From: a virus
Taxonomy: Duplodnaviria > Caudoviricetes
Strand: one strand, 5' to 3'
DNA: 64,000 nt
IMG/VR virus record: IMGVR_UViG_3300001525_000584
Coordinates: 1-64,000 of that record
The notes below the pieces were generated by a model. It was not told the origin of the DNA. It did not search any database and saw only the letters and a list, made by a program, of their open reading frames with translations. Shown in pieces: positions 2,282 to 54,635 of this stretch. The first letter of the stretch is position 1; every line of letters begins with the position of its first letter. The translations under genes and the position numbers were made by a program.

Positions 2282-2349
2282 ACTTAAACTAACTCCTTTT
2301 TTAGTGTAAATAGATTTTTTAATTCATAAAGTCCTGTCTTTATGAATAC

Positions 2350-2441
2350 TGGCGGAGAAGAAGAGATTCGAACTCTTGCACGACTATACATCGTCTACCT
2401 GTTTAGTAGACAGGTCCCTTCAACCGCTTGGGTACTTCTCC
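2350..2441 (-). tRNA. tRNA-Ser with ACU anticodon
   Basis: GGAGAAG/CTTCTCC acceptor, G73, CCA; anticodon arm CCTGT-CTACTAA-ACAGG; long variable arm; GTTCGAATC T-loop. Confidence 0.9.
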
Positions 2442-2485
2442 ATATAAGTTATGAGCTGACTTTTCATCAGCTCATGTACATTTTT

Positions 2486-2588
2486 CAGATGCATTTTGAC
2501 ATATATGTTTTAGATTTTCAAAAATCAAAACACAACGTAACATTTGACTCCTAAAGAACTCTGTTATATTTATTGCGGTTAGCATCTG
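2486..2588 (-). ncRNA. CCGCAA hairpin RNA copy A
   Basis: CAGATGC-TAA-CCGCAA...GCATCTG. Confidence 0.65.
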
Positions 2589-2590
2589 TG

Positions 2591-2680
2591 CAGCTGCTTA
2601 TTATGTATTTAGATAAAATATCTAAATAAAGCTAAAGGCTCAATATCAATTTCTTCTCTAAAAGTTGCGGTGGGCAGCTG
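2591..2680 (-). ncRNA. CCGCAA hairpin RNA copy B
   Basis: CAGCTGC-CCA-CCGCAA...GCAGCTG; compensatory change in the stem. Confidence 0.65.
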
Positions 2681-2710
2681 TAAAAATTTTAAATAATATT
2701 TAGTTGTAAA

Positions 2711-2989
2711 TCACTCGGTAACTTCTGTAACAGTGGTTTCTTCTACTACAGTAACCTCTGCGGTAGTCTCAGCAGCAGTTTCAACTCCGGTGGTTTCTTC
2801 TACTACTTCTGTTCCAGTTACTTCTCCGGTCGCTTCTACTGTAGTCTCTTCAGCAGCAGTGCCAGTGGCCTCTGCCGTTGTTTCAACATCGGCGCCAGTT
2901 GTCTCTGCATCATCCTTTTCAGGCTTGCAAGCTGCAAAACAAACCAGTACCATAAGCAGAGCAAACATCAGACAAAACATCTTTTTCAT
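2711..2989 (-). CDS. small acidic Thr/Glu/Ala/Val-rich lipoprotein
   Basis: MKK + hydrophobic stretch + FAAC lipobox; ETT repeats; AGGAG RBS. Confidence 0.75.
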   Translation of the reverse strand: MKKMFCLMFALLMVLVCFAACKPEKDDAETTGADVETTAEATGTAAEETTVEATGEVTGTEVVEETTGVETAAETTAEVTVVEETTVTEVTE

Positions 2990-3022
2990 GTTTTAATGTA
3001 TACTCCTTTTGGGAATTTTTTA

Positions 3023-3077
3023 ACAGATGCTTTATGTAGCATTACTAACCAGCTCAATGATCGCGGCCAGCATCTGT
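3023..3077 (-). ncRNA. CCGCAA hairpin RNA copy C
   Basis: ACAGATGC-TGG-CCGCGA...GCATCTGT. Confidence 0.65.
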
Positions 3078-3082
3078 ATCAA

Positions 3083-3159
3083 TGGCTGTCGAAGATGGAT
3101 TTGAACCATCGAAATACCAGAGTCAAAGTCTGGTGCCTTAACCGCTTGGCTATTCGACA
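3083..3159 (-). tRNA. tRNA-Gln(UUG)
   Basis: Anticodon arm CCAGA-CTTTGAC-TCTGG; CCA encoded. Confidence 0.92.
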
Positions 3160-3166
3160 TTAAAAC

Positions 3167-3223
3167 GCAAGTGCATTATGTATAAAATCCTCATCATACT
3201 ATAATATTGCGGTGAGCACTTGC
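3167..3223 (-). ncRNA. CCGCAA hairpin RNA copy D
   Basis: GCAAGTGC-TCA-CCGCAA...GCACTTGC; compensatory changes. Confidence 0.65.
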
Positions 3224-3231
3224 AAAAATAA

Positions 3232-3292
3232 ACAGATACATTTAAGATTAGAAATTAGCAGTTTCCTCTTATAAATAGCGGTAAGTATCTGT
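3232..3292 (-). ncRNA. CCGCAA hairpin RNA copy E, carrying a Ser(GCU)-like anticodon arm
   Basis: ACAGATAC-TTA-CCGCTA...GGAAA-CTGCTAA-TTTCT...GTATCTGT. Confidence 0.7.
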
Positions 3293-3315
3293 ATTATGTA
3301 TATTTTAATATACAA

Positions 3316-3387
3316 AGCTGACGGAGGGATTTGAACCCACAACCTACTGATTACAAATCAGTAGCGCTACCGTTGCGCCACGTCAGC
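3316..3387 (-). tRNA. tRNA-Thr(UGU), no encoded CCA
   Basis: GCTGACG/CGTCAGC acceptor; ACTGA-TTTGTAA-TCAGT. Confidence 0.92.
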
Positions 3388-3390
3388 ATG

Positions 3391-3465
3391 TGGTCCAGCC
3401 CCACTGGATCGAACAGTGTGTGTGCGCTTATAAGGCGCATCCTCAAACCATCGAGGACAAGCTGG
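3391..3465 (-). tRNA. tRNA-Ile(UAU)
   Basis: TGCGC-CTTATAA-GCGCA; T-arm CACTG-TTCGATC-CAGTG; A73-CCA; two G-U pairs in the acceptor. Confidence 0.8.
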
Positions 3466-3591
3466 ATATCAAATAGTGAAAATGAGAACAGTACCACTTC
3501 ACTCAGGCCCATATTCATTTATATAGCGCAGCCAAATCTTTAATAAAAGATAAACTGATCAGGTTTGCTGTTACGGCCATCCCTGCGCTTT

Positions 3592-3667
3592 TGGTGTATC
3601 CTCGGAGGTTCGAACTCCGGGCTTCACGATTAAAAGTCGTGTATTCTCCCTGCTGAATTAAGGATAC
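3592..3667 (-). tRNA. tRNA-Lys(UUU)
   Basis: CACGA-CTTTTAA-TCGTG; CCA encoded. Confidence 0.92.
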
Positions 3668-3848
3668 ATATAAACTTTTCAAGGGCTTTCTCACTGCCTC
3701 CGTAGAGTCCACCGAGCTTTCACGGACATCCTAAATAGGAACCCGAGGCCATAAATATTATCATTCAGGGCCAGTGAGTCCTGGCCGGCTGCACATTTAG
3801 CCTTTTAATTTAGGGGCGGTGGCTCATTTTGCTTCATATAACCGCCCA

Positions 3849-3922
3849 TGGCTGGGGATAAGAGAATTGAACTCCTGTGGGGTGGTTAACAGCCACCTGC
3901 CAAACCACTTGGCGAATCCCCA
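3849..3922 (-). tRNA. tRNA-Asn(GUU)
   Basis: GGTGG-CTGTTAA-CCACC; G73-CCA. Confidence 0.88.
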
Positions 3923-3929
3923 AAGTTAT

Positions 3930-3989
3930 CAGATGCGTTAGGATGAAAAGTTAACATGCTTTTTCCATAATAATTGCGGCGTGCATCTG
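3930..3989 (-). ncRNA. CCGCAA hairpin RNA copy F, with an Asn(GUU)-like loop
   Basis: CAGATGC-ACG-CCGCAA...AAAAG-CATGTTAA-CTTTT...GCATCTG; AATGTATAAT motif just upstream. Confidence 0.68.
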
Positions 3990-4015
3990 TATATTATATT
4001 ATACATTTTAATTTT

Positions 4016-4357
4016 TTACATTTGCCGAAATCTTAATTTTAATTTTTTATTTTGTTTAGAATCATAAGAACTCGTCAATTTTAATTTTCCATGGTTACCT
4101 ATAGAAACTAAAGTAACTTCATTTTTATCAAATTTATAAATGACTGCAATATCAGACGCCAGGTGAAAATCCCAACAGCCCTGAAATTCTCTTCTAGAAT
4201 TTTTGGACAACTTGTGATTTTGAGTTTTTGCCGGCAGCTTTTCTCCGTTACAAAGCATCGTAGTATACTTTTTCAGCAGTTCTTCGTCGAAATCAGGGTA
4301 TTTGCAAACATCTTTGTATTGTTGCACATATCTATTTGAAAATACTAAATTCTTCAT
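4016..4357 (-). CDS. yafQ: YafQ/RelE-family mRNA interferase toxin
   Basis: NHKL, WDFHL, SD, IGNH match YafQ His/Asp catalytic positions; ATG at 4357 overlaps the upstream stop (ATGA). Confidence 0.8.
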   Translation of the reverse strand: MKNLVFSNRYVQQYKDVCKYPDFDEELLKKYTTMLCNGEKLPAKTQNHKLSKNSRREFQGCWDFHLASDIAVIYKFDKNEVTLVSIGNHGKLKLTSSYDSKQNKKLKLRFRQM

Positions 4358-4539
4358 TTGTCGTCCTCTGCATGCAGAAAAGCCCATGCATCGTCTACAG
4401 AATCAAATCTATAAAGCTCTACCGAATCCGGATCCATAACGTAATCCAAAATAGATTCAATAAGTTCAGGACTATAATTTTCTTCTACTCGTAACTCTTC
4501 TGCAAGTTCTTCTCTGAGATCTGCTTTGGTCTTTTCCAC
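4354..4539 (-). CDS. putative acidic antitoxin
   Basis: 61 aa, acidic, coupled to the toxin; FDSVDDAWAFL resembles DinJ/RelB C-termini. Confidence 0.6.
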   Translation of the reverse strand: MEKTKADLREELAEELRVEENYSPELIESILDYVMDPDSVELYRFDSVDDAWAFLHAEDDK

Positions 4540-4647
4540 GATCCTTAAGCTCCTTTAGATAAAAACTCTTTGAATCTAATTATTTTGTCAATCTCGTTGA
4601 GGTGTCGATTCTAACGCTCAATTCATCCTAGGCGCTACCCAGGCACC

Positions 4648-4727
4648 TTGCATGATCAGCTGGACTTGCACCAGCATTTACAAATCATATATACAATTTG
4701 TTGTTCTGCTTTTTGAACTATGATAAT
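4648..4727 (-). pseudogene. tRNA-like element with 10-nt anticodon loop
   Basis: Intact D-arm (GTTC/GAAC) and T-arm (GCTGG-TGCAAGT-CCAGC); acceptor has one mismatch; ends G-CAA. Confidence 0.6.
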
Positions 4728-4837
4728 ATGCACTAGTTGTTTTTAAGTGGTAACTAGGGAGCCACTATTCATTTTTCTTTGGTATGAATAAACAAAACCT
4801 TTGCAACGTTGATTTTTACTAAGCTATCAACAAACTT

Positions 4838-4914
4838 TGGTGGCGGAGGCAGGGCTTGCACCTGCGACCTCCGGGTTATGAGCCCGACGAGCTACTAACT
4901 GCTACCACTCCGCG
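4838..4914 (-). tRNA. initiator tRNA-fMet(CAU)
   Basis: Unpaired C1:C72; three G-C pairs closing the CTCATAA loop; CCA. Confidence 0.93.
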
Positions 4915-9640: not shown

Positions 9641-9994
9641 TCATACTTTACTCAAAATATCTATATTATCTATTTGCAACCAACCAGACCAAAAACTATT
9701 TAATACAACTTTATTATTTATATCATATCCCACGCCGACAACTTTTATCATATTAGGCATTATTTTACTGACTTCTGCCTTCATATAACGCTCTGTAGGC
9801 GCTTTATTGCCGTTCCAGTTTATATTTATGGGGTTGGTAAAGGCCTGAGGTTTTAACGCGATTATATAGCAGTTATCCTCTTCTATTTTAATACTTTTTC
9901 TTTGTGGTATGTGATAAGTATTAGTTGCTGCGTCAAAATTAGATAAATCAGCCTCAGTAACCTTTTTTAACTGCTCTTCTATAACTTTACTCAT
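9641..9994 (-). CDS. hypothetical protein
   Basis: Translationally coupled ORF. Confidence 0.6.
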   Translation of the reverse strand: MSKVIEEQLKKVTEADLSNFDAATNTYHIPQRKSIKIEEDNCYIIALKPQAFTNPININWNGNKAPTERYMKAEVSKIMPNMIKVVGVGYDINNKVVLNSFWSGWLQIDNIDILSKV

Positions 9995-10626
9995 TTTACG
10001 GCACTGTCTTTTTCGTTAATAAAAGTACTTAGAAAATCTGCGGTATGCAACAAAGTTAATAGAGGGTATTTATTTAGATGCGCGCTCAGATCTCTAAACT
10101 GGCATTCATCATTCATGCCGCAGTGATGGTGCATGACTGCAATAGTTTCCTCTAAGGTTAGTGGAACAAAAGTACCGAGCATCAGTGCAGAAGCTTCCTC
10201 ATGTGTACCTAAAAGAGAACGTTCGGTTGCATCCTTTACTCTATAAGTTTCTTGTGAAACCCAATCAAAGTTACCCATATTATCATGTTTACTGCCGTTT
10301 TCATTATAGACTTTTTTATTAATCATAGTCTTTTCATAATAATTTGCCTTCGAAATATCATGCATTAGGGATACTACAGCTAAAGTGTCGGGCGTATACT
10401 GCCCCGGACAGTAAATAGAGGCAAGTTGCATAATATTATTATATACATTCAAACTATGTTGACAAAGTCCTCCATCATAATTCGAATGATACATAGTGGA
10501 TGCAGGTGCAATATAAAAGTCGCTATTATCTAGCCAGTTCAAAAGTCCCTGAATATCAGCACCTTCGATTTGCACCTGAGATAAAATGGTTATGACCCGG
10601 TTTCTATTTTCTTCAATAGTTGGCAT
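9991..10626 (-). CDS. HD-domain phosphohydrolase (YhaM-like HD)
   Basis: APAS..YH...GGL..HS, MHDISK, HHH, LHTAD; start moved to MPTIEE at 10626. Confidence 0.85.
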   Translation of the reverse strand: MPTIEENRNRVITILSQVQIEGADIQGLLNWLDNSDFYIAPASTMYHSNYDGGLCQHSLNVYNNIMQLASIYCPGQYTPDTLAVVSLMHDISKANYYEKTMINKKVYNENGSKHDNMGNFDWVSQETYRVKDATERSLLGTHEEASALMLGTFVPLTLEETIAVMHHHCGMNDECQFRDLSAHLNKYPLLTLLHTADFLSTFINEKDSAVK

Positions 10627-10672
10627 GTTCTTATACCTCTTTTCTTCACTTCTATACATATAATAATACAAT

Positions 10673-10702
10673 AGAAAAGAGCCTGATATAACATCAGACT
10701 CT
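10673..10702 (-). terminator. intrinsic terminator closing the NAD operon
   Basis: AGAGTCTGAT-GTTAT-ATCAGGCTCT then TTTCT. Confidence 0.65.
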
Positions 10703-10717
10703 AAAATAGTAAAAATT

Positions 10718-11458
10718 TTACTTTTTGAATTTAGGCATAGGCTCCAGCTTGTGAAGATTTTTAATATGCCTGTCCTCAATATTTTTAAGTGTTTGTTCTT
10801 CAGGTTCAACACCAAACAAAAGATAATTATCCAATTCACTATAAGTGAATCCGAGATTTTCTTCATCTGTTTTTCCTGATAAACCATCTTCAGGAACCTT
10901 TTCAACAAATTCTTCAGGTACTTTTAACTCTTTTCCGATTTGCTTTACTTCTGAAACTGTTAAATCAGATAAGGGTGAAAAATCTCCAGCCGCATCGCCA
11001 AACTTCGTTGCATAGCCAACATAATCTTCGGATTTGTTGCAAGTATTTACAACACGTGCATCGCCTAAAGCTGCTGCGATACCATAAAGAATAGTCATGC
11101 GGAGACGTGCAGGTGTATTAGATGTATATACAGGAGCTTTATTAATAGGTAAAGCTGTTGTAAAAATCAGCGTGTCCGTAAGGGTTTCATACAGATATTT
11201 AATATCAATCTCGTAGGATTTAGTACCTAGATAATCACAGACAGCCCTGGCTGTTCTGAGATCATGCTGGTTACCCTGAGGCATTCTTACACAAATCACT
11301 CTATTTGCGCCTACGGCTTCTACGCAGATCTTTGCTGCAATAGTCGAATCTTTACCGCCTGAGATACCGATCACAGCTACAGTGTCTCCACCAAAACTGT
11401 TCAGATATTCACGCACCCATTCTACTACTCGGGCGCTTAACTTTTTCTTTGCTGCCAT
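10718..11458 (-). CDS. nadE: NH3-dependent NAD+ synthetase
   Basis: ISGGKDS PP-loop, ARLRM, NKSE..VGYATKFGD, PEDGL..TDE. Confidence 0.93.
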   Translation of the reverse strand: MAAKKKLSARVVEWVREYLNSFGGDTVAVIGISGGKDSTIAAKICVEAVGANRVICVRMPQGNQHDLRTARAVCDYLGTKSYEIDIKYLYETLTDTLIFTTALPINKAPVYTSNTPARLRMTILYGIAAALGDARVVNTCNKSEDYVGYATKFGDAAGDFSPLSDLTVSEVKQIGKELKVPEEFVEKVPEDGLSGKTDEENLGFTYSELDNYLLFGVEPEEQTLKNIEDRHIKNLHKLEPMPKFKK

Positions 11459-11476
11459 AAATTAATTTTCTCCTTT

Positions 11477-12022
11477 TTACAAATCACTTCTGCTTACATT
11501 TATTTGACATGACTTCATAACCTCTAAAGCGGCTTTATGTTTTTCCTGTGTACTGCCCGCACAAAGATCTTCATATACGACGATATCCGCTCTAGGAAAA
11601 CGTGTCTTCAAAAGCAAAGCATTTGTAACAACACAGATATCTGTACAAGTACCTACTAAAACGATCTTATTTGGATCAGTGCCAAAAACCTGTTCTAAGT
11701 ACGGATCATCCCAGTTTGCCCCAAACGTATTTTTCTTTACTGTAATGCCTAAAGTCTCTGTTTTAAGCGTGCGATACAAAGATTCATCGATACACCAGCC
11801 CACAGTCCCTTCTATACAGTGTGGGACCGGAAGCTTACATCCTTCAGGAGTATTCAAATAATTATAAGAATGTGTGTCCTGAGTCATAATTATCGAGGTC
11901 CAGTCCGCGCTTTTCATCAAATTTCTAATCTTAGGTACCAAAGCTAAAGCATCAGGATTAGCCAAAGAACCTGTTAAAAAATCATTTTGCATATCAACAA
12001 CGATCAAAATGCTGTCTGCCAT
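11477..12022 (-). CDS. pncA: nicotinamidase (isochorismatase family)
   Basis: VVDMQNDF, TQDTH, PHC..GT.G, K, GTCTDICV (Asp-Lys-Cys triad). Confidence 0.88.
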   Translation of the reverse strand: MADSILIVVDMQNDFLTGSLANPDALALVPKIRNLMKSADWTSIIMTQDTHSYNYLNTPEGCKLPVPHCIEGTVGWCIDESLYRTLKTETLGITVKKNTFGANWDDPYLEQVFGTDPNKIVLVGTCTDICVVTNALLLKTRFPRADIVVYEDLCAGSTQEKHKAALEVMKSCQINVSRSDL

Positions 12023-12603
12023 TCTTTATTCACCTCCAAAATAGTAGCACGCATAGAATTATAATCAGGATATAGTGAGCGATCAACCAAAGCCTGAAAA
12101 GTATCTACATCATCTTTTAATAGAGCTTCTCTAACAGCGGTTGCCGAGATATCTGGGATATTCTTACTAAGGCCTCTGCGGCTAATACTTAAAATATCTA
12201 TACCTGATAACATCTCAGGAGTAAACCAGGAACTTCTAATGTTTTCTGAACCGGAAACCAATAGATCAGGGTATCTGTCGAAGTCTCTTTTAACCTGATC
12301 TAGATAATATTTTCCCCAGTCAGTATCATCAGAGATGGTTGCTCGATCACTAAGAGCTCCCACAAACAAAGAACTATCAGTATTGCCGGCTAAGTTGCCT
12401 GCATAAGGACCTAAGGCTGCTAAAATCATATCTCTGCGCGCATAATAAGTAAAGGGATTTTTTGGGGTACCTGATTTATTTGCCGAGCCTATATATACTA
12501 CGACATTCTCAGCCACATCCAAGGCTTTTTGAATCATGTATATATGCCCTTTATGCAGGGGCTGAAAACGTCCACATATGGCGGCCAACTTATATTTACT
12601 CAT
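12004..12603 (-). CDS. nadM: NMN/NaMN adenylyltransferase (NadM-type)
   Basis: GRFQPLHKGH, IGSA, NPFT, ISATAVR. Confidence 0.85.
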   Translation of the reverse strand: MSKYKLAAICGRFQPLHKGHIYMIQKALDVAENVVVYIGSANKSGTPKNPFTYYARRDMILAALGPYAGNLAGNTDSSLFVGALSDRATISDDTDWGKYYLDQVKRDFDRYPDLLVSGSENIRSSWFTPEMLSGIDILSISRRGLSKNIPDISATAVREALLKDDVDTFQALVDRSLYPDYNSMRATILEVNKEWQTAF

Positions 12604-13804
12604 GAATGCCCTCCCGATTTAATCTAAAAGCTACCGAATCTCTTAGATATTTTTCATATGTTTCATCCTGGCACATGGTTTTACCAGGTTCATCAGACAA
12701 CTTCGCTACAGGTTTTCCATTTACATACTGCAATTTGATTACGATGTTAAGAGGTGTTGCCGCAGTATTATTAGATACATAAGTTCCGATGCCAAAAGAA
12801 ACCTTTGTACGTCCTCTAAAATAATTATAAAGTCTTTGTGCTTTATCAAAATTCAGGCTGTCTGAAAATAGAAGCGTTTTGGTCATGGGATCGATGCCAT
12901 ACTTTTTATACTGCTTAATAATCTTTTCGCCCCATACATAAGGATCGCCAGAGTCATGTCTGACCCCCGAATAGTTATTTGCATTAGCCCGATCAAAATC
13001 CAGAAGGAAAAGATCTGTACTTAGAGTATCTGTTAAAGCTGTTCCCAAATCTCCCTTATACTCATCGTACCAGTCCTGCAAAGCAAATTTATTAGTATAA
13101 GCAAGAGGTATAGAATCGATACCCTGATACATCTGTACATATTCATGTGCGTAAGTTCCAATAGGCGTTAATTTATACTTCTTCGCAAGATATACATTAG
13201 ATGTGCCGACTAGGTTATTCGGGATATTTTCTGCAAGAGTCTTTACAACAAAATCCTCCCAGTCCCTGCTGAGTCTTCTACGGCAACCAAACTCTGCAAA
13301 TTTAAAATCATAAGTATGATCTTTGAATTTGGTCAAATTCTCTGCTAATTTTTCTCTTGCGGAATTTTCCAAATAAGCATATTCATAAGTCGGATGCATT
13401 CTAAAATAAACTTCATTTACGATCTCGAGCAGATAAATCTCAAACTGCATACAACTAAAGAGTGGCCCTTTTACATGAATAATAAGCTCGTCACCAACAC
13501 AATCTACATTTACATAATCTCTAATAGGATGCCACAGGCGAAGAAACTCTACGAAGTCGTTTTTAATAAAACGAATGCTTCTTAAATAATCAAGTTCTTC
13601 TTCAGTAAAAGTCAGCGTGCAGAGGTGATCCACCTGTGCCTCAATTTCACGAAACTGAAGATAAGTAAATTTCACATCTTTATTACGACATTTAAAAATA
13701 TATTCGCCACAAAGATCAGTATGCTTATGGAAAATAGTCTGATTCATAGTCAACTTATAAAAGTCTGTGTCCAGTAACGAATTAATAATAGGATCGAGTT
13801 TCAT
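12596..13804 (-). CDS. pncB: nicotinate phosphoribosyltransferase
   Basis: LLDTDFYK, EFGCRRR, GTSN, GTYAHE, RHDSGDP, FSDSL, FGIGT, KLSD. Confidence 0.93.
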   Translation of the reverse strand: MKLDPIINSLLDTDFYKLTMNQTIFHKHTDLCGEYIFKCRNKDVKFTYLQFREIEAQVDHLCTLTFTEEELDYLRSIRFIKNDFVEFLRLWHPIRDYVNVDCVGDELIIHVKGPLFSCMQFEIYLLEIVNEVYFRMHPTYEYAYLENSAREKLAENLTKFKDHTYDFKFAEFGCRRRLSRDWEDFVVKTLAENIPNNLVGTSNVYLAKKYKLTPIGTYAHEYVQMYQGIDSIPLAYTNKFALQDWYDEYKGDLGTALTDTLSTDLFLLDFDRANANNYSGVRHDSGDPYVWGEKIIKQYKKYGIDPMTKTLLFSDSLNFDKAQRLYNYFRGRTKVSFGIGTYVSNNTAATPLNIVIKLQYVNGKPVAKLSDEPGKTMCQDETYEKYLRDSVAFRLNREGIHE

Positions 13805-13836
13805 TTTAAAAAATTCTCCTCTTCATGTTCTGTTTA

Positions 13837-13846
13837 TATATACAAT
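13837..13846 (-). promoter_or_regulatory. AWTGTATAWT-type promoter motif upstream of pncB
   Basis: ATTGTATATA between the upstream terminator and the GAGGAG RBS; the motif recurs before most left-arm transcription units. Confidence 0.55.
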
Positions 13847-13872
13847 AAAAAGACCCTGATTAGAGGGTCTTT
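13847..13872 (-). terminator. intrinsic terminator upstream of the NAD operon
   Basis: AGACCCT/AGGGTCT hairpin with T-tract. Confidence 0.65.
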
Positions 13873-14275
13873 ACGAACTTTTTTGTTCTAAATATTCGAG
13901 AAGCGTTTTAAAAAGATATTCGTCTATAATATAATGATTTTCATTATAAGGTTCATCAGGGCCGAAATTAATGACCAAAGCTGTGTGAGCTTTTCCCATC
14001 TCAGAAGCTTCGTAACGATTTTTTTCAAACCATTCTCTTTTTATAGATATAGATTCAGAATTAGTGGTTTTTGTTTTCGCTTCTATTAAAAAGCTCGAAT
14101 CGTAAGAGCCGCCATTTGTTAATACATCGCCTTTTATAGATGCTGCGCCGCTATTAGGCGTTCTTTTTCCGCCAACAGCTTCGGCGATACTTTTCTCCTG
14201 TTTTGAAGAAAAGTATCTCGTAGGCTGTTTTTCTGATTCACCTTCTTTAATTCTCTTTTTTACTCCGAGAGCCAT
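13871..14275 (-). CDS. PD-(D/E)xK Holliday-junction-resolvase-like nuclease
   Basis: QE, SGA..KGDV, IEAKT. Confidence 0.7.
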   Translation of the reverse strand: MALGVKKRIKEGESEKQPTRYFSSKQEKSIAEAVGGKRTPNSGAASIKGDVLTNGGSYDSSFLIEAKTKTTNSESISIKREWFEKNRYEASEMGKAHTALVINFGPDEPYNENHYIIDEYLFKTLLEYLEQKSS

Positions 14276-15441
14276 TATTCAACACTCTTATCTACAGCAT
14301 ACTGATTATCAACCGCACGCTGCTGCGCATCGATCTCCGCATTAATACGATCATCCAAAATGTTGCCATAGTTATTATCCTCATTCGAGATAACTCTATT
14401 TAACATAGCCAGGTATGTTGCCTGAAAACCTGGATTGCCTTTAATATAAGCTAAAAGATCATTTTTACGTCCTGTTAAGTCGTTGCCCTCTTCATCTTTA
14501 TATGCTTCTCCTGTTTCCAGGTTAATTAGAGAATATGTAACATTATTAAGACGCTTAATAAAACCAAAGCCTAAAGCGATCTCTAACAAATCATTAATCC
14601 AGTCTAAACCGGTTTCATATCTAAAGGTTAAAAATCCACCACCACGGTTGCATGCGCCGCATTTATTCTTTAGAATTTTAAAATGCAGTCTGAAGCCATC
14701 GGCACCTTCACCATTCTTCTGTCCGCACGCATCCATATCATCCCCTAAAGTAAATTTACGTGTTCCGAAGCGTACGATAATAGAAGAATAATATGCAGGA
14801 GCTGCGCCACAAGGCTCCTTAAACTTCTGGATACCCGTAAATGTTTTACCATCGTCACGCACCTGGTTAATGCCGATGAATAAATTATTTTTATTAGAAA
14901 CCATAGCAGCCATCTGTGCATAAAAAGGATATAGAGGCTTAGCCATAGAAGCACGCATGCCCGAGTCTTTAGTCAAATCATTTTCCATGACGATCTCAGG
15001 TACCAAAGCCGGCAAAGAATCGAGAACAATAACTCCGATATCATCCTGATCCTGCATCTCTAAAATCATCTGTAAAATCTGCTGACCGGACTGCCCATCC
15101 GGATTAACATAATAAAGAGTGTTTAAGTCTAATCCAGTCATTTTTGCCTGAAACCGTAAATCCAGAGAATGCTCTACATCGATATATACACAGGCTTTTT
15201 CAGGATATCGTCTTTGATATGCTGCAACTACTGCACAGGCTGCCGTTGTTTTACCTGAATGTTGCAAGCCTGAAAACTCAATAAGTCTGCCTAGAGGAAT
15301 ACCTCCAGCTAAAGGATAATCCAAACCTAAAGCATTAGTAGCCAAACGTTCATAATTAGGACGAATGTTACTAGTAGTCATTAAATTAGGATCTTTAAAT
15401 TCTTTACAAATTTTTGCTGCGTATTGCGCTATAGTACCCAT
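14275..15441 (-). CDS. recA: RecA/UvsX recombinase
   Basis: GGIPLGR, Walker A GLQHSGKTT, YIDVEHSLD, VLDSL, INQVR, KNK. Confidence 0.93.
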   Translation of the reverse strand: MGTIAQYAAKICKEFKDPNLMTTSNIRPNYERLATNALGLDYPLAGGIPLGRLIEFSGLQHSGKTTAACAVVAAYQRRYPEKACVYIDVEHSLDLRFQAKMTGLDLNTLYYVNPDGQSGQQILQMILEMQDQDDIGVIVLDSLPALVPEIVMENDLTKDSGMRASMAKPLYPFYAQMAAMVSNKNNLFIGINQVRDDGKTFTGIQKFKEPCGAAPAYYSSIIVRFGTRKFTLGDDMDACGQKNGEGADGFRLHFKILKNKCGACNRGGGFLTFRYETGLDWINDLLEIALGFGFIKRLNNVTYSLINLETGEAYKDEEGNDLTGRKNDLLAYIKGNPGFQATYLAMLNRVISNEDNNYGNILDDRINAEIDAQQRAVDNQYAVDKSVE

Positions 15442-15451
15442 GCATATCTCC

Positions 15452-15943
15452 TTATTCGATAGATGTACCTAAATTCATGAACTTAGCCTCTTGCATGCGA
15501 GACATTAAAATACTCTTTAATGAATCGACCAGTCTAAAGCCTCCATCCAGTTTCGTTTTTAAAGAACTAGCTACTAATTCATAAAGTGCTTCTACAATAA
15601 TCTCTTCAGAAGAAGCTAAAGTAGCTTTAGTATCTTTAATATTTACAGTGCCTTCAGCCTCGAGCAACGCTGAAGAATATTTTTCTTTTCTTAGAGCCTC
15701 AGATAAATTACTCTTCATAGCTGCCTTATCCTTAGGTTCACTAAGTTCATAACAACGAAGCTGTAGACGAATAATATAATCTCTAATAGCTTCTATAGGC
15801 ATATTAGCAGAGTTATCCCTGATCTCCTGTACTAAATCATCCATAGGCTTCGTGATGGGCGCCAACATGCTATTCGCAATTTCTACCACGTCCTGATATG
15901 TCAGCTCAACATTTTCTAAAGCCTTTGTTAAATCTTTTGCCAC
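15452..15943 (-). CDS. helical hypothetical protein (possible UvsY-like mediator)
   Basis: Size, helical character and position next to recA; function inferred only. Confidence 0.45.
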   Translation of the reverse strand: MAKDLTKALENVELTYQDVVEIANSMLAPITKPMDDLVQEIRDNSANMPIEAIRDYIIRLQLRCYELSEPKDKAAMKSNLSEALRKEKYSSALLEAEGTVNIKDTKATLASSEEIIVEALYELVASSLKTKLDGGFRLVDSLKSILMSRMQEAKFMNLGTSIE

Positions 15944-15954
15944 GGTATCACCCC

Positions 15955-16161
15955 TTATTTTCTAAGTACTATAGTTATACAATTAGGCTCATTAGTATAA
16001 TGCTTTATATCATTTATGCTTATTTTAAATACTTCATAGTCTAATAGATCTGTTTTTAAAGCGTCTTTTTTAAAGGCAGAATCCAAAACAACATTCTGCA
16101 GATCTGTTATTTTTATAGGACAGTTAGCATCCACCATTCTTAATAGTTGAAAAAGTGTCAT
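15955..16161 (-). CDS. hypothetical protein
   Basis: In-operon ORF. Confidence 0.55.
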   Translation of the reverse strand: MTLFQLLRMVDANCPIKITDLQNVVLDSAFKKDALKTDLLDYEVFKISINDIKHYTNEPNCITIVLRK

Positions 16162-16165
16162 AAAA

Positions 16166-16642
16166 TCATTCTCCGTCCACTAAAGTTTTTAATACAGTAT
16201 AATCAGACTCCATAAAAATTCTTTTTTTAACGGAGGGTATAGGTAAAATTTTATAGGTGTTTTCTTTTAACATTTTAATATTAAAAGATTTGCAACCGTC
16301 ATTCATCATGGCTGTTACAGAACTGATGGGTAAATATATAACAGCGTCGTGATCCTGCATCCACAAAATAACGCCTGCGCGAACACCTTCTATACCCACA
16401 TATTTAGTTAACTTATCATACTGCGTTAGAGCAGTCCATGGAAAAGTGTTGCCTTTATGTGATTTACACTCTAATAAGTACAAATTCGGCTGTACATATC
16501 CTATGAAGTCACAGGGGTTTTGTGATGTTACTTTATAGCCTGATACCTGATCATAAAGTCTTAATAAAAAACTATGGGGGAAAGCTTTTGCCCAGTCTTC
16601 TTTAAACTTCGCTTCAAACTTTTTACCATTATTCAGCGCCAT
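16166..16642 (-). CDS. RecU-like Holliday junction resolvase
   Basis: GKKFE, PCDF, LECKS, LTQ. Confidence 0.75.
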   Translation of the reverse strand: MALNNGKKFEAKFKEDWAKAFPHSFLLRLYDQVSGYKVTSQNPCDFIGYVQPNLYLLECKSHKGNTFPWTALTQYDKLTKYVGIEGVRAGVILWMQDHDAVIYLPISSVTAMMNDGCKSFNIKMLKENTYKILPIPSVKKRIFMESDYTVLKTLVDGE

Positions 16643-17102
16643 TAGTATCTCCTACTAATGTAACATCTCCGGCATTAAGAACTCCGGACAGCTGCTTTTT
16701 TATTTTATTTAAAGTTATGTTGTCGATATTTTCTGTGGCTTGTAGAAAATAAGCTTTTTCTACATCTTTAATAAAAGGTAGATTAAAGGGGATGCACATA
16801 TCGTGCATTCTTAATAGTGCAGAAACTCCATCAGCGTTAAATCTTAATTTATAAATATAATAATCTAGATTCTGCTCTGCCACGTACTCTTGAGCTAAAT
16901 ATTTGTTCCAGGACTCTTCTGATTCAGGATTTTCCTCGGGGCACCATTTACACCAAATTAAAAAATTCTCGGCCCATTTTACGTGCAGCCATTCTTCAAA
17001 ATACTTTTTAGCATCCGCAAAAGTTGCAGCATAGCCAATGTATGTATCAGGATCTTCTGCTGCAGCTACTGCATAAATAGATAACGTCTTTTTTCCAAAC
17101 AT
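16629..17102 (-). CDS. hypothetical protein
   Basis: Overlapping in-operon ORF. Confidence 0.6.
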   Translation of the reverse strand: MFGKKTLSIYAVAAAEDPDTYIGYAATFADAKKYFEEWLHVKWAENFLIWCKWCPEENPESEESWNKYLAQEYVAEQNLDYYIYKLRFNADGVSALLRMHDMCIPFNLPFIKDVEKAYFLQATENIDNITLNKIKKQLSGVLNAGDVTLVGDTNGAE

Positions 17103-53831: not shown

Positions 53832-54635
53832 ATGTATCTTTTTGAAAATGCCTTTAAAGATTTAAGAGATGCTAATATAATTACTGAAGATTTAGATACA
53901 CGTTTCACAGAAGATCAGTTAAAATATTTTAAAAATACTGTCATTAAAGATGCACAGGGTTATCCTGAGGTCTGTTATCATTCAACTCCTTATGATTTTT
54001 CTTATTTTAATCGTGGAGATATAGGATATCATTTCGCTTCCGAGGGCATCGCCAAAGCTCATGCGGAGGCATATGAAGATCAGTTTTTCCAAGCCTGGGA
54101 GGACGAAGGCGATTTAGACGATTTTGAAACTGAATCCGACGAGATGATCTTTGATGAATTAGTAGCAAAGCGCATGAAGATTTGTTATTTAAATATTCAG
54201 CGCCCCGCGCATTTCGATATAGATCCCGGTAATTGGAACGACGGACCTGTGGTTGCAGGATTAATTTTATGTTCTAAAGTTCCCTTTACAAAAATAGAGG
54301 CGCAGCTGAATGCAAAAGGCATGAAAAACACAGAATACTTTTTAAGAAAATTAAAAAGCACTTTTGATGCCAGCCCTCTTAAACAAAATGCCCAGAGCTG
54401 CGTGGATATACCCTTAACTTCAGTAGATATAGAAAAGTTATTAGATACCATTCTCAATAATTCACCAATAACTGCAGTAAGAGATTTTATAAAGAGTAAA
54501 GGTTATGATGGTATTATTTATGTAAATTCGTGGGACGAAGCTGCTGGGGATTCTTCTTATATAATTTTCGATTCTAATCAGGCTAAATATATAACTAATT
54601 TACATCCCACTTCAGCAAAAGAATTAGACAAATAA
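53832..54635 (+). CDS. ADP-ribosyltransferase-like protein (polyvalent-protein ART type)
   Basis: VCYHST, GYHF, YLNI..P, GYDGII, YIIFDSNQ.K. Confidence 0.6.
   Translation: MYLFENAFKDLRDANIITEDLDTRFTEDQLKYFKNTVIKDAQGYPEVCYHSTPYDFSYFNRGDIGYHFASEGIAKAHAEAYEDQFFQAWEDEGDLDDFETESDEMIFDELVAKRMKICYLNIQRPAHFDIDPGNWNDGPVVAGLILCSKVPFTKIEAQLNAKGMKNTEYFLRKLKSTFDASPLKQNAQSCVDIPLTSVDIEKLLDTILNNSPITAVRDFIKSKGYDGIIYVNSWDEAAGDSSYIIFDSNQAKYITNLHPTSAKELDK

Follow-up and report, generated by a model that had tools for sequence, protein, structure and literature searches.

What is a cluster of four NAD+ biosynthesis genes doing in the genome of a jumbo phage, and is it part of the phage at all? The window analyzed here covers 64,000 nucleotides of the IMG/VR record IMGVR_UViG_3300001525_000584, which is a complete 217.6-kb jumbo phage genome with direct terminal repeats at its ends. 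A preliminary description of the window had read the cluster as a stand-alone pncB-nadM-pncA-nadE operon and as a new, third phage route for rebuilding NAD+ after NAD+-depleting defenses. We consider, with good confidence, that a jumbo myophage of rumen Clostridia took over the locus from its hosts as an accessory operon, which encodes the whole of nicotinamidase (PncA) plus Preiss-Handler NAD+ salvage.

The transcription unit and its enzymes

The four open reading frames were found at the positions previously given to them, all on the minus strand, in the 5' to 3' order pncB-nadM-pncA-nadE, with intact frames and conserved catalytic residues. They are closely packed, with an overlap of 8 nt between pncB and nadM, an overlap of 19 nt between nadM and pncA, and a gap of 18 nt between pncA and nadE. 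On the 5' side, the unit is bounded by an intrinsic terminator belonging to the upstream resolvase gene (13849..13872, minus strand; 9-bp stem, 6-nt loop, U tail), whose energy of -11.9 kcal/mol (z = -3.75) is equalled by none of 200 shuffles. This hairpin is retained, with a T-A to T.G change, in a 94% relative (L064), and a different hairpin occupies its position in L063. On the 3' side, a second intrinsic terminator follows nadE (10678..10702, minus strand; 11-bp stem, 3-nt loop, U tail; -13.4 kcal/mol, z = -4.41, again equalled by 0 of 200 shuffles). The spacing of the genes and the terminators on both sides, stronger than chance, agree with the preliminary description, but the promoter motif it placed at 13837-13846 stays putative: no sigma-70-like -35/-10 pair was found upstream of pncB, and the word TATTGTAT, common to this region and the next unit, has only 13 copies in the genome and is not enriched. 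The leader and putative promoter region (13805..13848, minus strand) has a Shine-Dalgarno sequence, GAGGAG, ahead of pncB, contains no Rfam riboswitch that we could find, and does not resemble the NrtR-type palindrome that precedes a bacterial operon (L014). From this layout, we infer that the four genes form one self-contained, terminator-bounded transcription unit.

The first gene (12596..13804, minus strand, 402 aa) encodes PncB, a nicotinate phosphoribosyltransferase that makes NaMN from nicotinate and PRPP (with ATP). It scores 492.6 bits with NF003704 (cut-off 379) and 424.2 bits with TIGR01514 (cut-off 269.55), also matches PF04095 and PF17767, and carries a His, H220, that is invariant in our alignment (A1). 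The comparison of PncB and Nampt profiles proposed in the preliminary description comes out for PncB: since the PncB models pass their cut-offs, whereas the phage Nampt family phrog_448 scores 85 bits only, a Nampt identity is ruled out for this gene.

The second gene (12004..12603, minus strand, 199 aa) probably encodes a NadM-type (archaeal-type) nicotinate/nicotinamide mononucleotide adenylyltransferase. It matches PF01467 with 46 bits (cut-off 21), includes the motifs GRFQPLHKGH and ISATAVR, and has no Nudix domain. Models of NadM and of archaeal NMNAT give its best profile matches, every one under its curated cut-off, and the top 19 PDB matches of its AlphaFold model (pLDDT 89.2) are all archaeal NMNAT or NadM enzymes (TM 0.62-0.79), with 2QJT/2R5W among the best solved relatives.

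The third gene, pncA (11477..12022, minus strand, 181 aa), probably encodes a nicotinamidase, releasing nicotinate and NH3 from nicotinamide. It scores 84.6 bits with PF00857 (cut-off 27), and its closest solved structures are the PncA enzymes of P. horikoshii and M. tuberculosis. We take an Asp/Lys/Cys triad and an Asp/His/His metal site as the mark of nicotinamidases; the corresponding D10/K97/C130 and the metal-binding D49/H51/H68 show at least 95% conservation among 36 homologues.

The last gene, nadE (10718..11458, minus strand, 246 aa), encodes a single-domain NH3-dependent NAD+ synthetase, converting NaAD, ATP, and NH3 into NAD+ (possibly also NaMN into NMN), with 174.4 bits for TIGR00552 (cut-off 63.65), 179 bits for PF02540, a conserved SGGKDS P-loop, and no glutaminase domain. 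PncB and NadE thus pass curated equivalog or domain cut-offs. PncA and NadM fall short of the curated NCBIfam equivalog cut-offs, and it is their motifs, fold, and operon context that make the assignment probable. Profiles, motifs, and catalytic residues support the gene identities and the chemistry previously proposed, from nicotinamide through nicotinate, NaMN, and NaAD to NAD+.

The cassette appears to be the sole NAD-synthesis system of the phage, as no Prs-like/Adps, Nampt, Nudix, or PnuC gene and no PnuC-NadR pathway was found in the 217.6-kb genome. Outside the operon, the ADP-ribosyltransferase-like protein previously noticed at 53832 is confirmed as an ART-PolyVal protein (53832..54635, plus strand; PF18760, 33.8 bits, gathering cut-off 31.2). 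It occurs once in the genome and is the only NAD+-consuming, nicotinamide-releasing enzyme detected among those tested.

Origin and genomic setting

Compared with the PncB proteins of rumen Ruminococcus, Oscillospiraceae, and Lachnospiraceae genomes (Clostridia), the phage PncB shows 66-74% identity; identities to Clostridia proteins are 39-49% for PncA, 39-49% for NadE, and 28-37% for NadM. In the PncB tree, the phage sequences are long basal branches of the rumen Clostridia clade. Clusters on genuinely bacterial contigs of rumen Clostridia read pncA-nadE-nadM-pncB (L012/L013) or nrtR-HD-pncA-nadE-pncB (L014), the latter being under NrtR control. All four enzyme families of the phage cassette, the NadM-type transferase and the short NadE among them, are represented in these chromosomal operons of rumen and gut Clostridia, but the phage copy has its own gene order, lacks the NrtR regulator and any operator-like palindrome, and is bounded by its own terminators. 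The comparison identifies rumen Clostridia hosts as the source of the cassette.

Within the phage, the operon lies between a UvsX-like recombinase and a resolvase on one side and clamp-loader genes on the other, in a slot with the architecture o163-UvsX-resolvase-[cargo]-o117-clamp loader. One relative (L064, UvsX 98%) has the same left junction, from o163-UvsX-resolvase into pncB and the start of nadM, where its contig ends. In L096 (UvsX 83%), the slot holds a larger NAD island, with NadR-like, PnuC, pncB, nadM, pncA, NADAR, and nadE genes, and in three further relatives (L097, L098, and L099; UvsX 81, 76, and 73%) the syntenic slot has no NAD genes. Judged from this slot, the cassette is accessory cargo at a variable site between the UvsX/resolvase and clamp-loader genes. 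Of the 30 related IMG/VR loci covered by the survey of phage genomes that the preliminary description suggested, at least 18 have all four functions in a cluster, arranged in at least five different orders, and phage copies of pncB nearly always come with pncA.

The high identity of PncB to bacterial genes and the presence of the same cluster on bacterial chromosomes could also mean that bacterial DNA was mis-binned or mis-assembled into the viral record, or that the genes are a decaying passenger. We regard this as extremely improbable, given the complete record with its terminal repeats, the position of the cassette between phage genes, the junction common to L064, and a matching arrangement of the cassette near phage genes on the 216-224 kb contigs L063 and L096. 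The intact frames, the conserved catalytic residues, and a GC content in line with that of the flanking DNA argue against it as well.

Order of the last two steps

We infer, rather than show, that the enzymes are active in vivo, in which order the final two reactions run, and that defense is affected. The pathway would start with hydrolysis of nicotinamide to nicotinate by PncA and its conversion with PRPP to NaMN by PncB. The NadM-type adenylyltransferase would then turn NaMN into NaAD, which the ammonia-dependent NadE would amidate to NAD+. The reverse order, in which NadE acts as an NMN synthetase on NaMN and NadM then makes NAD+ from NMN, so that NaAD is never formed, seems unlikely to us. 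It would fit the ranking of solved structures against the phage NadE, in which the F. tularensis enzyme (3FIU, 124 bits) comes first, ahead of 2E18 from P. horikoshii (112 bits), as well as a NadM-NadE fusion in one related locus (L002). Nevertheless, at the positions of Tyr27, Gln133, and Arg236, which reportedly contact the phosphate of NaMN in the Francisella protein, the phage NadE has Phe22, Ala129, and Lys233, residues that are not conserved in the family. Moreover, a NadD-type enzyme (TIGR00482, 92-93 bits) takes the place of NadM in some sister phage cassettes whose PncB, PncA, and NadE are homologous, and bacterial NadD prefers NaMN, which implies that NadE acts on NaAD.

The F. tularensis NadE homologue is an NMN synthetase working with NadM, and the NadM family uses NMN efficiently, but NadM enzymes can also use NaMN, and the short NadE of M. 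jannaschii is a genuine NAD synthetase that lacks NMN synthetase activity (PMC3376133, which also summarizes the Francisella route of Sorci et al. 2009). As in Francisella, a transferase of the NadM family is paired in the phage with a short NadE of one domain, but the phage NadM has no Nudix domain; the NadD of the sister cassettes argues for the classical NaAD route, although substrate preference is not readable from sequence.

Known phage NAD+ modules and the role of the cassette

Clusters of this kind have been known in gut jumbo phages since 2024, so the claim of novelty fails. Gut 'NAD-jumbo phages' have complete Preiss-Handler pathways and pncB-nadD-nadE clusters, for example in Kuafu_71, and counter-defense against NAD+ depletion was explicitly proposed for them, from sequence analysis only (Li et al. 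2024, Microbiome, PMC11662467). Prior description as an anti-defense pathway, which the preliminary description had held would count against its reading, therefore exists as a proposal and not as a demonstration. Both cases concern uncultured animal-gut jumbo phages with clustered genes of the deamidated route and a proposed counter-defense role, and the published pathways are likewise host-complementary in some phages and redundant in others. The present operon differs in its NadM-type enzyme (archaeal type, no Nudix) instead of nadD, in a Clostridia host instead of mainly Bacteroidota, and in the inclusion of pncA, which makes nicotinamide the input. The present analysis adds the comparison of the variable slot among relatives and the bacterial operon from which the cassette stems.

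The 'third route' label is also out of date, since NARP3 already names PnuC and NadR of phage Bas30, which restore NAD+ against Sir2-HerA (Yan et al. 2026, PMC13464706). NARP3 is likewise an NAD+-restoring phage module, and L096 has a PnuC and NadR-like pair directly beside a homologous four-gene cassette, but NARP3 imports nicotinamide riboside, needs no PRPP, and is missing from the present genome. NARP2 (Nampt and Nmnat of Vibrio phage KVP40; PRPP-dependent) abolished Thoeris and DSR2 defense and raised NAD+, even without a defense system (Osterman et al., 10.1101/2024.02.11.579819). Our cassette shares with it the conversion of nicotinamide and PRPP to NAD+, a HIGH-motif adenylyltransferase, and an NAD+ production expected irrespective of active defense. 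It takes four steps via nicotinate, NaMN, and NaAD instead of two via NMN, requires NH3 and more ATP, and uses PncB, not Nampt; NARP2 is experimentally validated, whereas the present cassette is known from sequence. The difference from NARP1 and NARP2 stated in the preliminary description is borne out by a genome without Prs-like/Adps or Nampt.

The cassette may be dedicated to counter-defense, in effect a fourth NAD+ reconstitution pathway recycling the nicotinamide freed by Thoeris, DSR, SIR2-HerA, SEFIR, and pAgo, a reading that we place somewhat short of an even chance. Its presence or absence among syntenic relatives is typical of anti-defense cargo, the L096 slot also holds NADAR and a PnuC plus NadR-like pair (the PnuC-NadR pathway is validated as NARP3), and the near-constant company of pncA and pncB suggests that the cassette is meant to take in nicotinamide, which NADases release. 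NARP2 shows that PRPP-based salvage suffices against Thoeris and DSR2, and the same role was suggested by Li et al. On the other hand, the cassette simply duplicates a housekeeping operon of the host, unlike the phage-specific NARP1, and its four steps are ATP-expensive; a general metabolic benefit would explain the genes equally well, since NARP2 elevates NAD+ without any defense. A general auxiliary metabolic module, which we hold possible rather than probable, would boost NAD+ for replication whether or not a defense is present and recycle nicotinamide from ART-PolyVal, or compensate for shut-off of the NrtR-controlled host salvage operon. The location in the replication/recombination block, the single ART-PolyVal, the NAD+ overproduction by NARP2 phages, and the emphasis of Li et al. 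on NAD+-consuming enzymes in NAD-jumbo phages are consistent with this, and the phage copy, without NrtR gene or similar operator, would be constitutively expressed during infection. Nevertheless, close relatives with the same replication module have no cassette in the slot, so replication itself does not depend on it, and the phage's own demand for NAD+ looks small, because no NAD-dependent ligase, Tpt1, Macro, or Nudix gene was found in its genome.

Host-type genomes already encode the same pathway, so the phage copy would add nothing unless the host genes are silenced or cannot keep pace. Each NAD+ made by this route consumes PRPP and up to three ATP, and NADases can still cleave it; that deamidated intermediates escape these enzymes is pure speculation, as the end product is still NAD+. 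By analogy with yeast Pnc1 and Sir2, removal of nicotinamide by PncA could, if anything, relieve product inhibition of sirtuin/SIR2-type NADases. An anti-defense role is a plausible hypothesis. Expressed as a single unit within the replication/recombination block, the cassette would keep or raise NAD+ in the infected cell by recycling nicotinamide from any source, and the likely benefits, which are mutually compatible, would be surviving NAD+-depleting abortive infection and re-using nicotinamide that the phage-encoded ADP-ribosyltransferase sets free.

Layout of the operon and identity of its enzymes

The cassette consists of four minus-strand ORFs in the order pncB-nadM-pncA-nadE, which occupy 10718-13804 with gene overlaps of 8 and 19 nt and a remaining gap of 18 nt. 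The preliminary description of four genes with catalytic motifs enclosed between two terminators is borne out by the ORFs, the motifs and the hairpins: the terminators at 13872-13849 and 10702-10678 both combine a hairpin with a U-tract (z = -3.75 and -4.41, respectively), and in neither case does any shuffled sequence fold as well. The upstream hairpin is retained, with a wobble-compatible change, in the related phage locus L064 (94%), and another hairpin replaces it at the same position in L063, a further related locus. The promoter motif placed at 13837-13846 finds no such support, as no sigma-70-type hexamer pair occurs before pncB, the shared word TATTGTAT is not enriched genome-wide as a recurrent phage promoter motif, and an Rfam search for an NAD riboswitch upstream of pncB gave nothing meaningful.

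Past the nadE terminator lies an HD protein (9991-10626), which was considered as a member of the NAD module, like the HD gene of bacterial nrtR-HD-pncA operons. The two proteins are unrelated (BLASTP E = 25), and the phage protein, which is located elsewhere in relatives and resembles Cas3-HD/MobH nucleases, was excluded from the module. The 305-aa ORF with a TTG start that overlaps nadE (9991-10908, minus strand) is over-extended; the likely start is an ATG at 10626, past the nadE terminator and with a Shine-Dalgarno sequence, giving a 211-aa HD-domain protein (phrog_28876/5889).

The first gene, pncB (12596-13804, minus strand), encodes a nicotinate phosphoribosyltransferase. The choice between PncB and Nampt, left earlier to profile comparison, falls on PncB: two curated NCBIfam cut-offs are passed, those of NF003704 (492.6 bits, cut-off 379) and TIGR01514 (424.2 bits, cut-off 269.55), and both NAPRTase domains are present, the N-terminal NAPRTase_N (PF17767, 105 bits) and the catalytic NAPRTase (PF04095, 230 bits). 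The PRK09243/TIGR01513-type NAPRTase models all remain well under their cut-offs, and the phage Nampt family phrog_448 reaches only 85 bits, so that PncB is distinct both from Nampt/NadV and from Namat of NARP1. No second NAPRTase-family gene occurs in the phage genome. An alignment of 8 sequences from phages and bacteria shows no variation at H220 of the motif T-x-A-H-E, a candidate for the autophosphorylated active-site His of ATP-coupled PncB.

The 181-aa product of pncA (11477-12022, minus strand) is a nicotinamidase of the isochorismatase superfamily (PF00857, 84.6 bits). It represents a divergent short form, which scores 17.2 bits against the nicotinamidase equivalog NF008623/PRK11609 and so does not reach its cut-off of 174; its best solved relatives are the archaeal PncA of P. 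horikoshii (E = 7e-10) and the mycobacterial PncA of M. tuberculosis (3e-9). The Asp-Lys-Cys catalytic triad (D10, K97, and C130) and the metal ligands (D49, H51, and H68) are each at least 95% conserved among 36 homologues. D10 and C130 match the catalytic Asp and Cys of these two enzymes, and D49, H51, and H68 are the counterparts of the D-x-H...H ligands in 1ILW and 3PL1. K97 was placed through the K-x-x-F-G-A motif; the HMMER alignment put this residue in an indel region. An Asp/His/His metal site is the mark that separates nicotinamidases from other isochorismatase-like hydrolases.

The adenylyltransferase encoded by nadM (12004-12603, minus strand; 199 aa) is NadM-like, and not NadD-like, in predicted fold and motifs, and falls outside every curated equivalog. 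Residues 11-20 read GRFQPLHKGH (GRFQPxHxGH type) and residues 152-158 ISATAVR (ISxTxxR type), with H20 and S153 invariant and T155 nearly so in an alignment of NadM homologues. With the structure model (pLDDT 89.2) as query, Foldseek returned only the NMNATs of M. thermautotrophicum and M. jannaschii and the NadMs of Synechocystis and Francisella at ranks 1-19; PPAT first appears at rank 20, and NadD no higher than rank 39. The NadM and archaeal NMNAT models are also its best HMM matches, though under their cut-offs (58.5 against 127, 46.9 against 181.2, and 59.6 against 397 for the set NF002243, TIGR01527, and PRK05379). The Nudix domain, a feature of bacterial NadM, was found neither in this protein nor across the phage genome.

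The last gene, nadE (10718-11458, minus strand), encodes a single-domain, NH3-dependent NAD+ synthetase of 246 aa without a glutaminase domain (TIGR00552, 174.4 bits, cut-off 63.65; PF02540, 179 bits), whose P-loop SGGKDS (S33-G-G-K-D-S38) is kept in 30 homologues. Among solved structures its best relative is Francisella 3FIU (124 bits), with the P. horikoshii enzyme at 112 bits.

With these identities, the chemistry claimed in the preliminary description (nicotinamide to nicotinate, NaMN, NaAD, and NAD+) is right as the best-supported reading of the genes. PncA would convert nicotinamide to nicotinate, PncB would combine nicotinate with PRPP into NaMN, NadM would turn NaMN into NaAD, and NadE would use ammonia to convert NaAD into NAD+. 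For the last two steps we consider this classical order, NadM followed by NadE acting on NaAD, to be quite probable from sequence. The sole indirect evidence on whether NadM prefers NaMN or NMN is the NadD-type enzyme that replaces it in sister cassettes; bacterial NadD is NaMN-specific, which argues for the classical order, as does the absence from phage NadE of three phosphate-binding specificity residues that Sorci et al. reportedly described in 2009 for Francisella NadE. It is less likely that NadM and the short NadE run a Francisella-type route via NMN, even though 3FIU, the best solved relative, is itself the Francisella NadE, and NadM-family enzymes use NMN too (PMC3376133). The Francisella NadE homologue is described as converting NaMN to NMN, which is adenylylated next by NadM (PMC3376133). 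Also against that route, the short NadE of archaea has genuine NAD synthetase activity (PMC3376133).

Phage genome and clostridial origin of the cassette

The record of 217,629 bp, of which the window represents the first 64 kb, has direct terminal repeats and is rated complete; its GC content of about 35% is even over the cassette locus. The left 26 kb of the window are transcribed on the minus strand and carry six tRNA genes and replication and recombination genes, and the right part holds tail-sheath and further structural genes. The phage is an uncultured jumbo myophage. Its tRNA cluster, which precedes the replication block at 2350-4914 on the minus strand, comprises Ser, Gln, Thr, Lys, Asn, and Met.

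No close relative was found among deposited phage genomes, and the 3.2-kb cassette locus gave no megablast match in 50,697 phage records. With PncB as tblastn query, only 19 phage records were retrieved, at no more than 46% identity, most of them from huge phages, from uncultured ones, or from what are probably the edges of prophages; Agrobacterium phage Atu_ph07 has pncB without pncA or nadE nearby. None of the PADLOC models matched the four cassette enzymes. Searches of the phage genome for Prs/Adps and PnuC found none, and a single CTP_transf_like gene is present; as no other NAD-synthesis genes were found, the cassette is the sole NAD+ synthesis system of the phage. NADAR, Macro, NAD-dependent ligase, and Tpt1 were likewise searched for in the phage genome, and none was found. 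Among the structural genes lies a single-copy ART-PolyVal ADP-ribosyltransferase-like gene (53832-54635), the one phage enzyme identified from sequence that would consume NAD+, releasing nicotinamide. Its product could be an effector that consumes NAD+ and is delivered by the virion.

PncB shares 66-74% identity with its counterparts in rumen and gut Clostridia (Ruminococcus, Ruminiclostridium, Oscillospiraceae, Lachnospiraceae, and Anaerovoracaceae). In these bacteria, pncA-nadE-nadM-pncB lie side by side in two loci (L012, L013), nadE-nadM-pncB in four (L030, L040, L042, L044), and pncA-nadE-pncB in another four (L009, L014, L015, L058), all flanked by ordinary bacterial genes. As the same enzymes are adjacent on bacterial contigs, a NadM-type transferase and a short NadE belong to the native gene set of these Clostridia. 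In L014, a 388-kb Oscillospiraceae contig, the first two genes of the operon (nrtR-HD-pncA-nadE-pncB) encode an NrtR regulator and an HD protein, and a perfect palindrome, AATATGATA-T-TATCATATT, stands upstream of nrtR; the positions concerned are 2230-2260 and 2304-3694. This palindrome is likely the NrtR operator, and it has no counterpart upstream of the phage pncB. It overlaps a promoter-like TTGACA...TATTAT. The cassette is a captured host operon, rearranged to pncB-nadM-pncA-nadE and devoid of NrtR.

Phage sequences occupy several long branches at the base of the PncB tree, beside the bacterial clade, and cluster above chance (0/500 shuffles); this tree neither establishes nor rejects a single origin of phage PncB.

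A variable slot and equivalent loci in other phages

Hundreds of proteins are related to the UvsX-like recombinase of the phage at 70-98% identity and lie on contigs of up to 224 kb; these were drawn from the protein database, an IMG/VR search with UvsX peptide patterns having returned none. Four contigs were set against the window, and the backbone o163-UvsX-resolvase-...-o117-clamp loader is conserved among the compared contigs, with the cassette lying between resolvase and o117. L064 (UvsX 98%) has the same left junction, where pncB and the first part of nadM come after o163-UvsX-resolvase before the contig ends. In L096 (UvsX 83%, 224-kb contig), a seven-gene NAD island (11646-17074) lies between the resolvase and clamp-loader genes and encodes a NadR-like protein (TIGR01526, 172 bits, under cut-off), PnuC (TIGR01528, 104.7 bits, cut-off 42.45), PncB, NadM, PncA, NADAR, and NadE. 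This island unites a NARP3-type pair, a Preiss-Handler cassette, and a NADAR protein. Its PncB is only 50% identical to that of the window, against 83% for UvsX, so the cargo was exchanged or diverged far faster than the backbone. In L097 (UvsX 81%) and L098 (76%), the resolvase is directly followed by o117 and the clamp loader, and L099 (73%) has no NAD genes in the slot or within 10 kb either side, the range to which "empty" refers throughout. L063 (216 kb, PncB 77%) keeps the order pncB-nadM-pncA-nadE among different neighbours.

Other features of these contigs were observed in passing. The NADAR protein of L096, of an ADP-ribose-processing type, weakly matches a "NADAR family anti-phage protein" model. 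In L096 (3097-6865), L097 (3185-7797), and L098 (2455-7066), GIY-YIG or DUF7487 genes interrupt the family-A DNA polymerase and divide it into two or three ORFs; in L099 it is one 822-aa protein. A ribosomal protein S21 homologue and a FAD-dependent pyridine nucleotide-disulphide oxidoreductase are found a few kb past the clamp-loader genes in L097 (15810-16001) and L098 (15685-15876).

The survey of phage genomes proposed in the preliminary description yielded 30 loci from an IMG/VR profile scan, tallied by tblastn with one truncated locus left out. All four functions occur within 7 kb in 18 of them, pncA-pncB-nadE in 5, pncB with pncA in 5, and pncB alone in 1, and at least five gene orders are represented. 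At one locus, recovered as both L002 and L067, NadM and NadE are fused, and PncB is extended at its C-terminus by about 120 aa. The fusion (L002:6001-8825, IMGVR_UViG_3300021387_000046) is a 415-aa protein with CTP_transf_like and NAD_synthase domains; the extra PncB segment has no Pfam match. Three loci carry a NadD-like adenylyltransferase with a GAFNPP motif (L005:1118-1777, L068:6364-6975, and L070:6381-6998), which scores 92-93 bits against TIGR00482 in L005 and L068. This replacement is a non-orthologous displacement of one step in an otherwise homologous operon. The shuffled order, the fusion, and the non-orthologous replacement at one step together show selection on the whole pathway.

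Relation to known pathways and biological role

Depleting NAD+ is one of the means that bacteria use most often against phages. NARP1, NARP2, and NARP3 are the phage responses validated so far, all of them tested in Bacillus and enterobacterial systems, and the earlier account of the first two agrees with the literature. NARP1 relies on a Prs-like ADPR pyrophosphokinase and a Nampt-like ADPR-PP:nicotinamide transferase, whereas the present phage shows no Pribosyltran_N match genome-wide and has PncB as its only NAPRTase-family gene. NARP2 consists of Nampt and an NMN adenylyltransferase; the phage shares an adenylyltransferase but combines it with a PncB-type transferase and with the required PncA and NadE. 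NARP3, defined as PnuC and NadR (PMC13464706), joins a nicotinamide riboside transporter to a bifunctional NadR and also differs from the cassette pathway, the phage having no NMN_transporter match and one CTP_transf_like gene; a NARP3-like PnuC and NadR-like pair is found in the relative L096, not in this phage.

The idea that the cassette constitutes a new "third route" does not stand, since NARP3 already names PnuC and NadR (PMC13464706), and the cassette class appears in Li et al. 2024, who counted, among 668 jumbo phages from animal guts, 174 with complete salvage or Preiss-Handler pathways (PMC11662467). The "NAD-jumbo phage" of that study (>200 kb, with PncB, NaMN adenylyltransferase, and NadE) describes our phage, which has 217,629 bp with direct terminal repeats and holds these genes, together with pncA, in one operon. 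The viral NAD+ survey of Iyer et al. 2022 lists only NadV, NadM, and NadR and states that every NadM phage carries NadV as well (PMC9503650), a statement to which this phage, pairing NadM with PncB, is an exception. In full-text literature searches, no experiment testing a PncA/PncB/NadE pathway of a phage came up; the deamidated four-enzyme route is so far on record through sequence surveys of gut jumbo phages. The cassette is a clean and compact representative of a class described before, and specific to it are the NadM-type transferase paired with PncB, the demonstrable capture from a Clostridia operon, and the variable slot that holds a NARP3-like pair elsewhere.

We tentatively propose, at somewhat less than even chances, that the cassette is a fourth NAD+ reconstitution pathway against NADase abortive infection, located in a swappable anti-defence hot spot between resolvase and clamp loader in Clostridia jumbo phages. 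That it offsets NAD+ depletion by host defence, a possibility we rate a little short of even, is consistent with its presence or absence in a variable slot, with the PnuC and NadR-like pair adjoining the cassette in L096, with the experimental precedents of NARP2 and NARP3, and with pncA standing beside pncB in nearly every phage copy, as expected if the NADase product is the input. A general NAD+ boost or nicotinamide recycling fits as well, given that the cassette is plainly of host origin and has lost its NrtR control, that the phage carries an ART gene, and that NARP2 overproduces NAD+ also without a defence system. These roles are not exclusive, and the present data, which both fit, do not discriminate between them. 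The suggestion that deamidated intermediates escape NADases is unsupported; the end product is still NAD+, at the expense of PRPP and up to three ATP. Nicotinamide clearance might, for its part, relieve product inhibition of SIR2-type enzymes.

Compact and intact, with clear boundaries, the cassette could be cloned unchanged, and the slot in relatives offers a natural experiment: empty, with four genes, or with seven genes including the PnuC and NadR-like pair. Either outcome would be unsurprising to specialists, as the idea is already published. If no protection were seen, the view that clusters of this kind are general metabolic boosters would be supported. If the route works, NAD+ reconstitution would be extended to phages of strictly anaerobic rumen Firmicutes, and a housekeeping operon simply copied from the host would be shown capable of acting as counter-defence.
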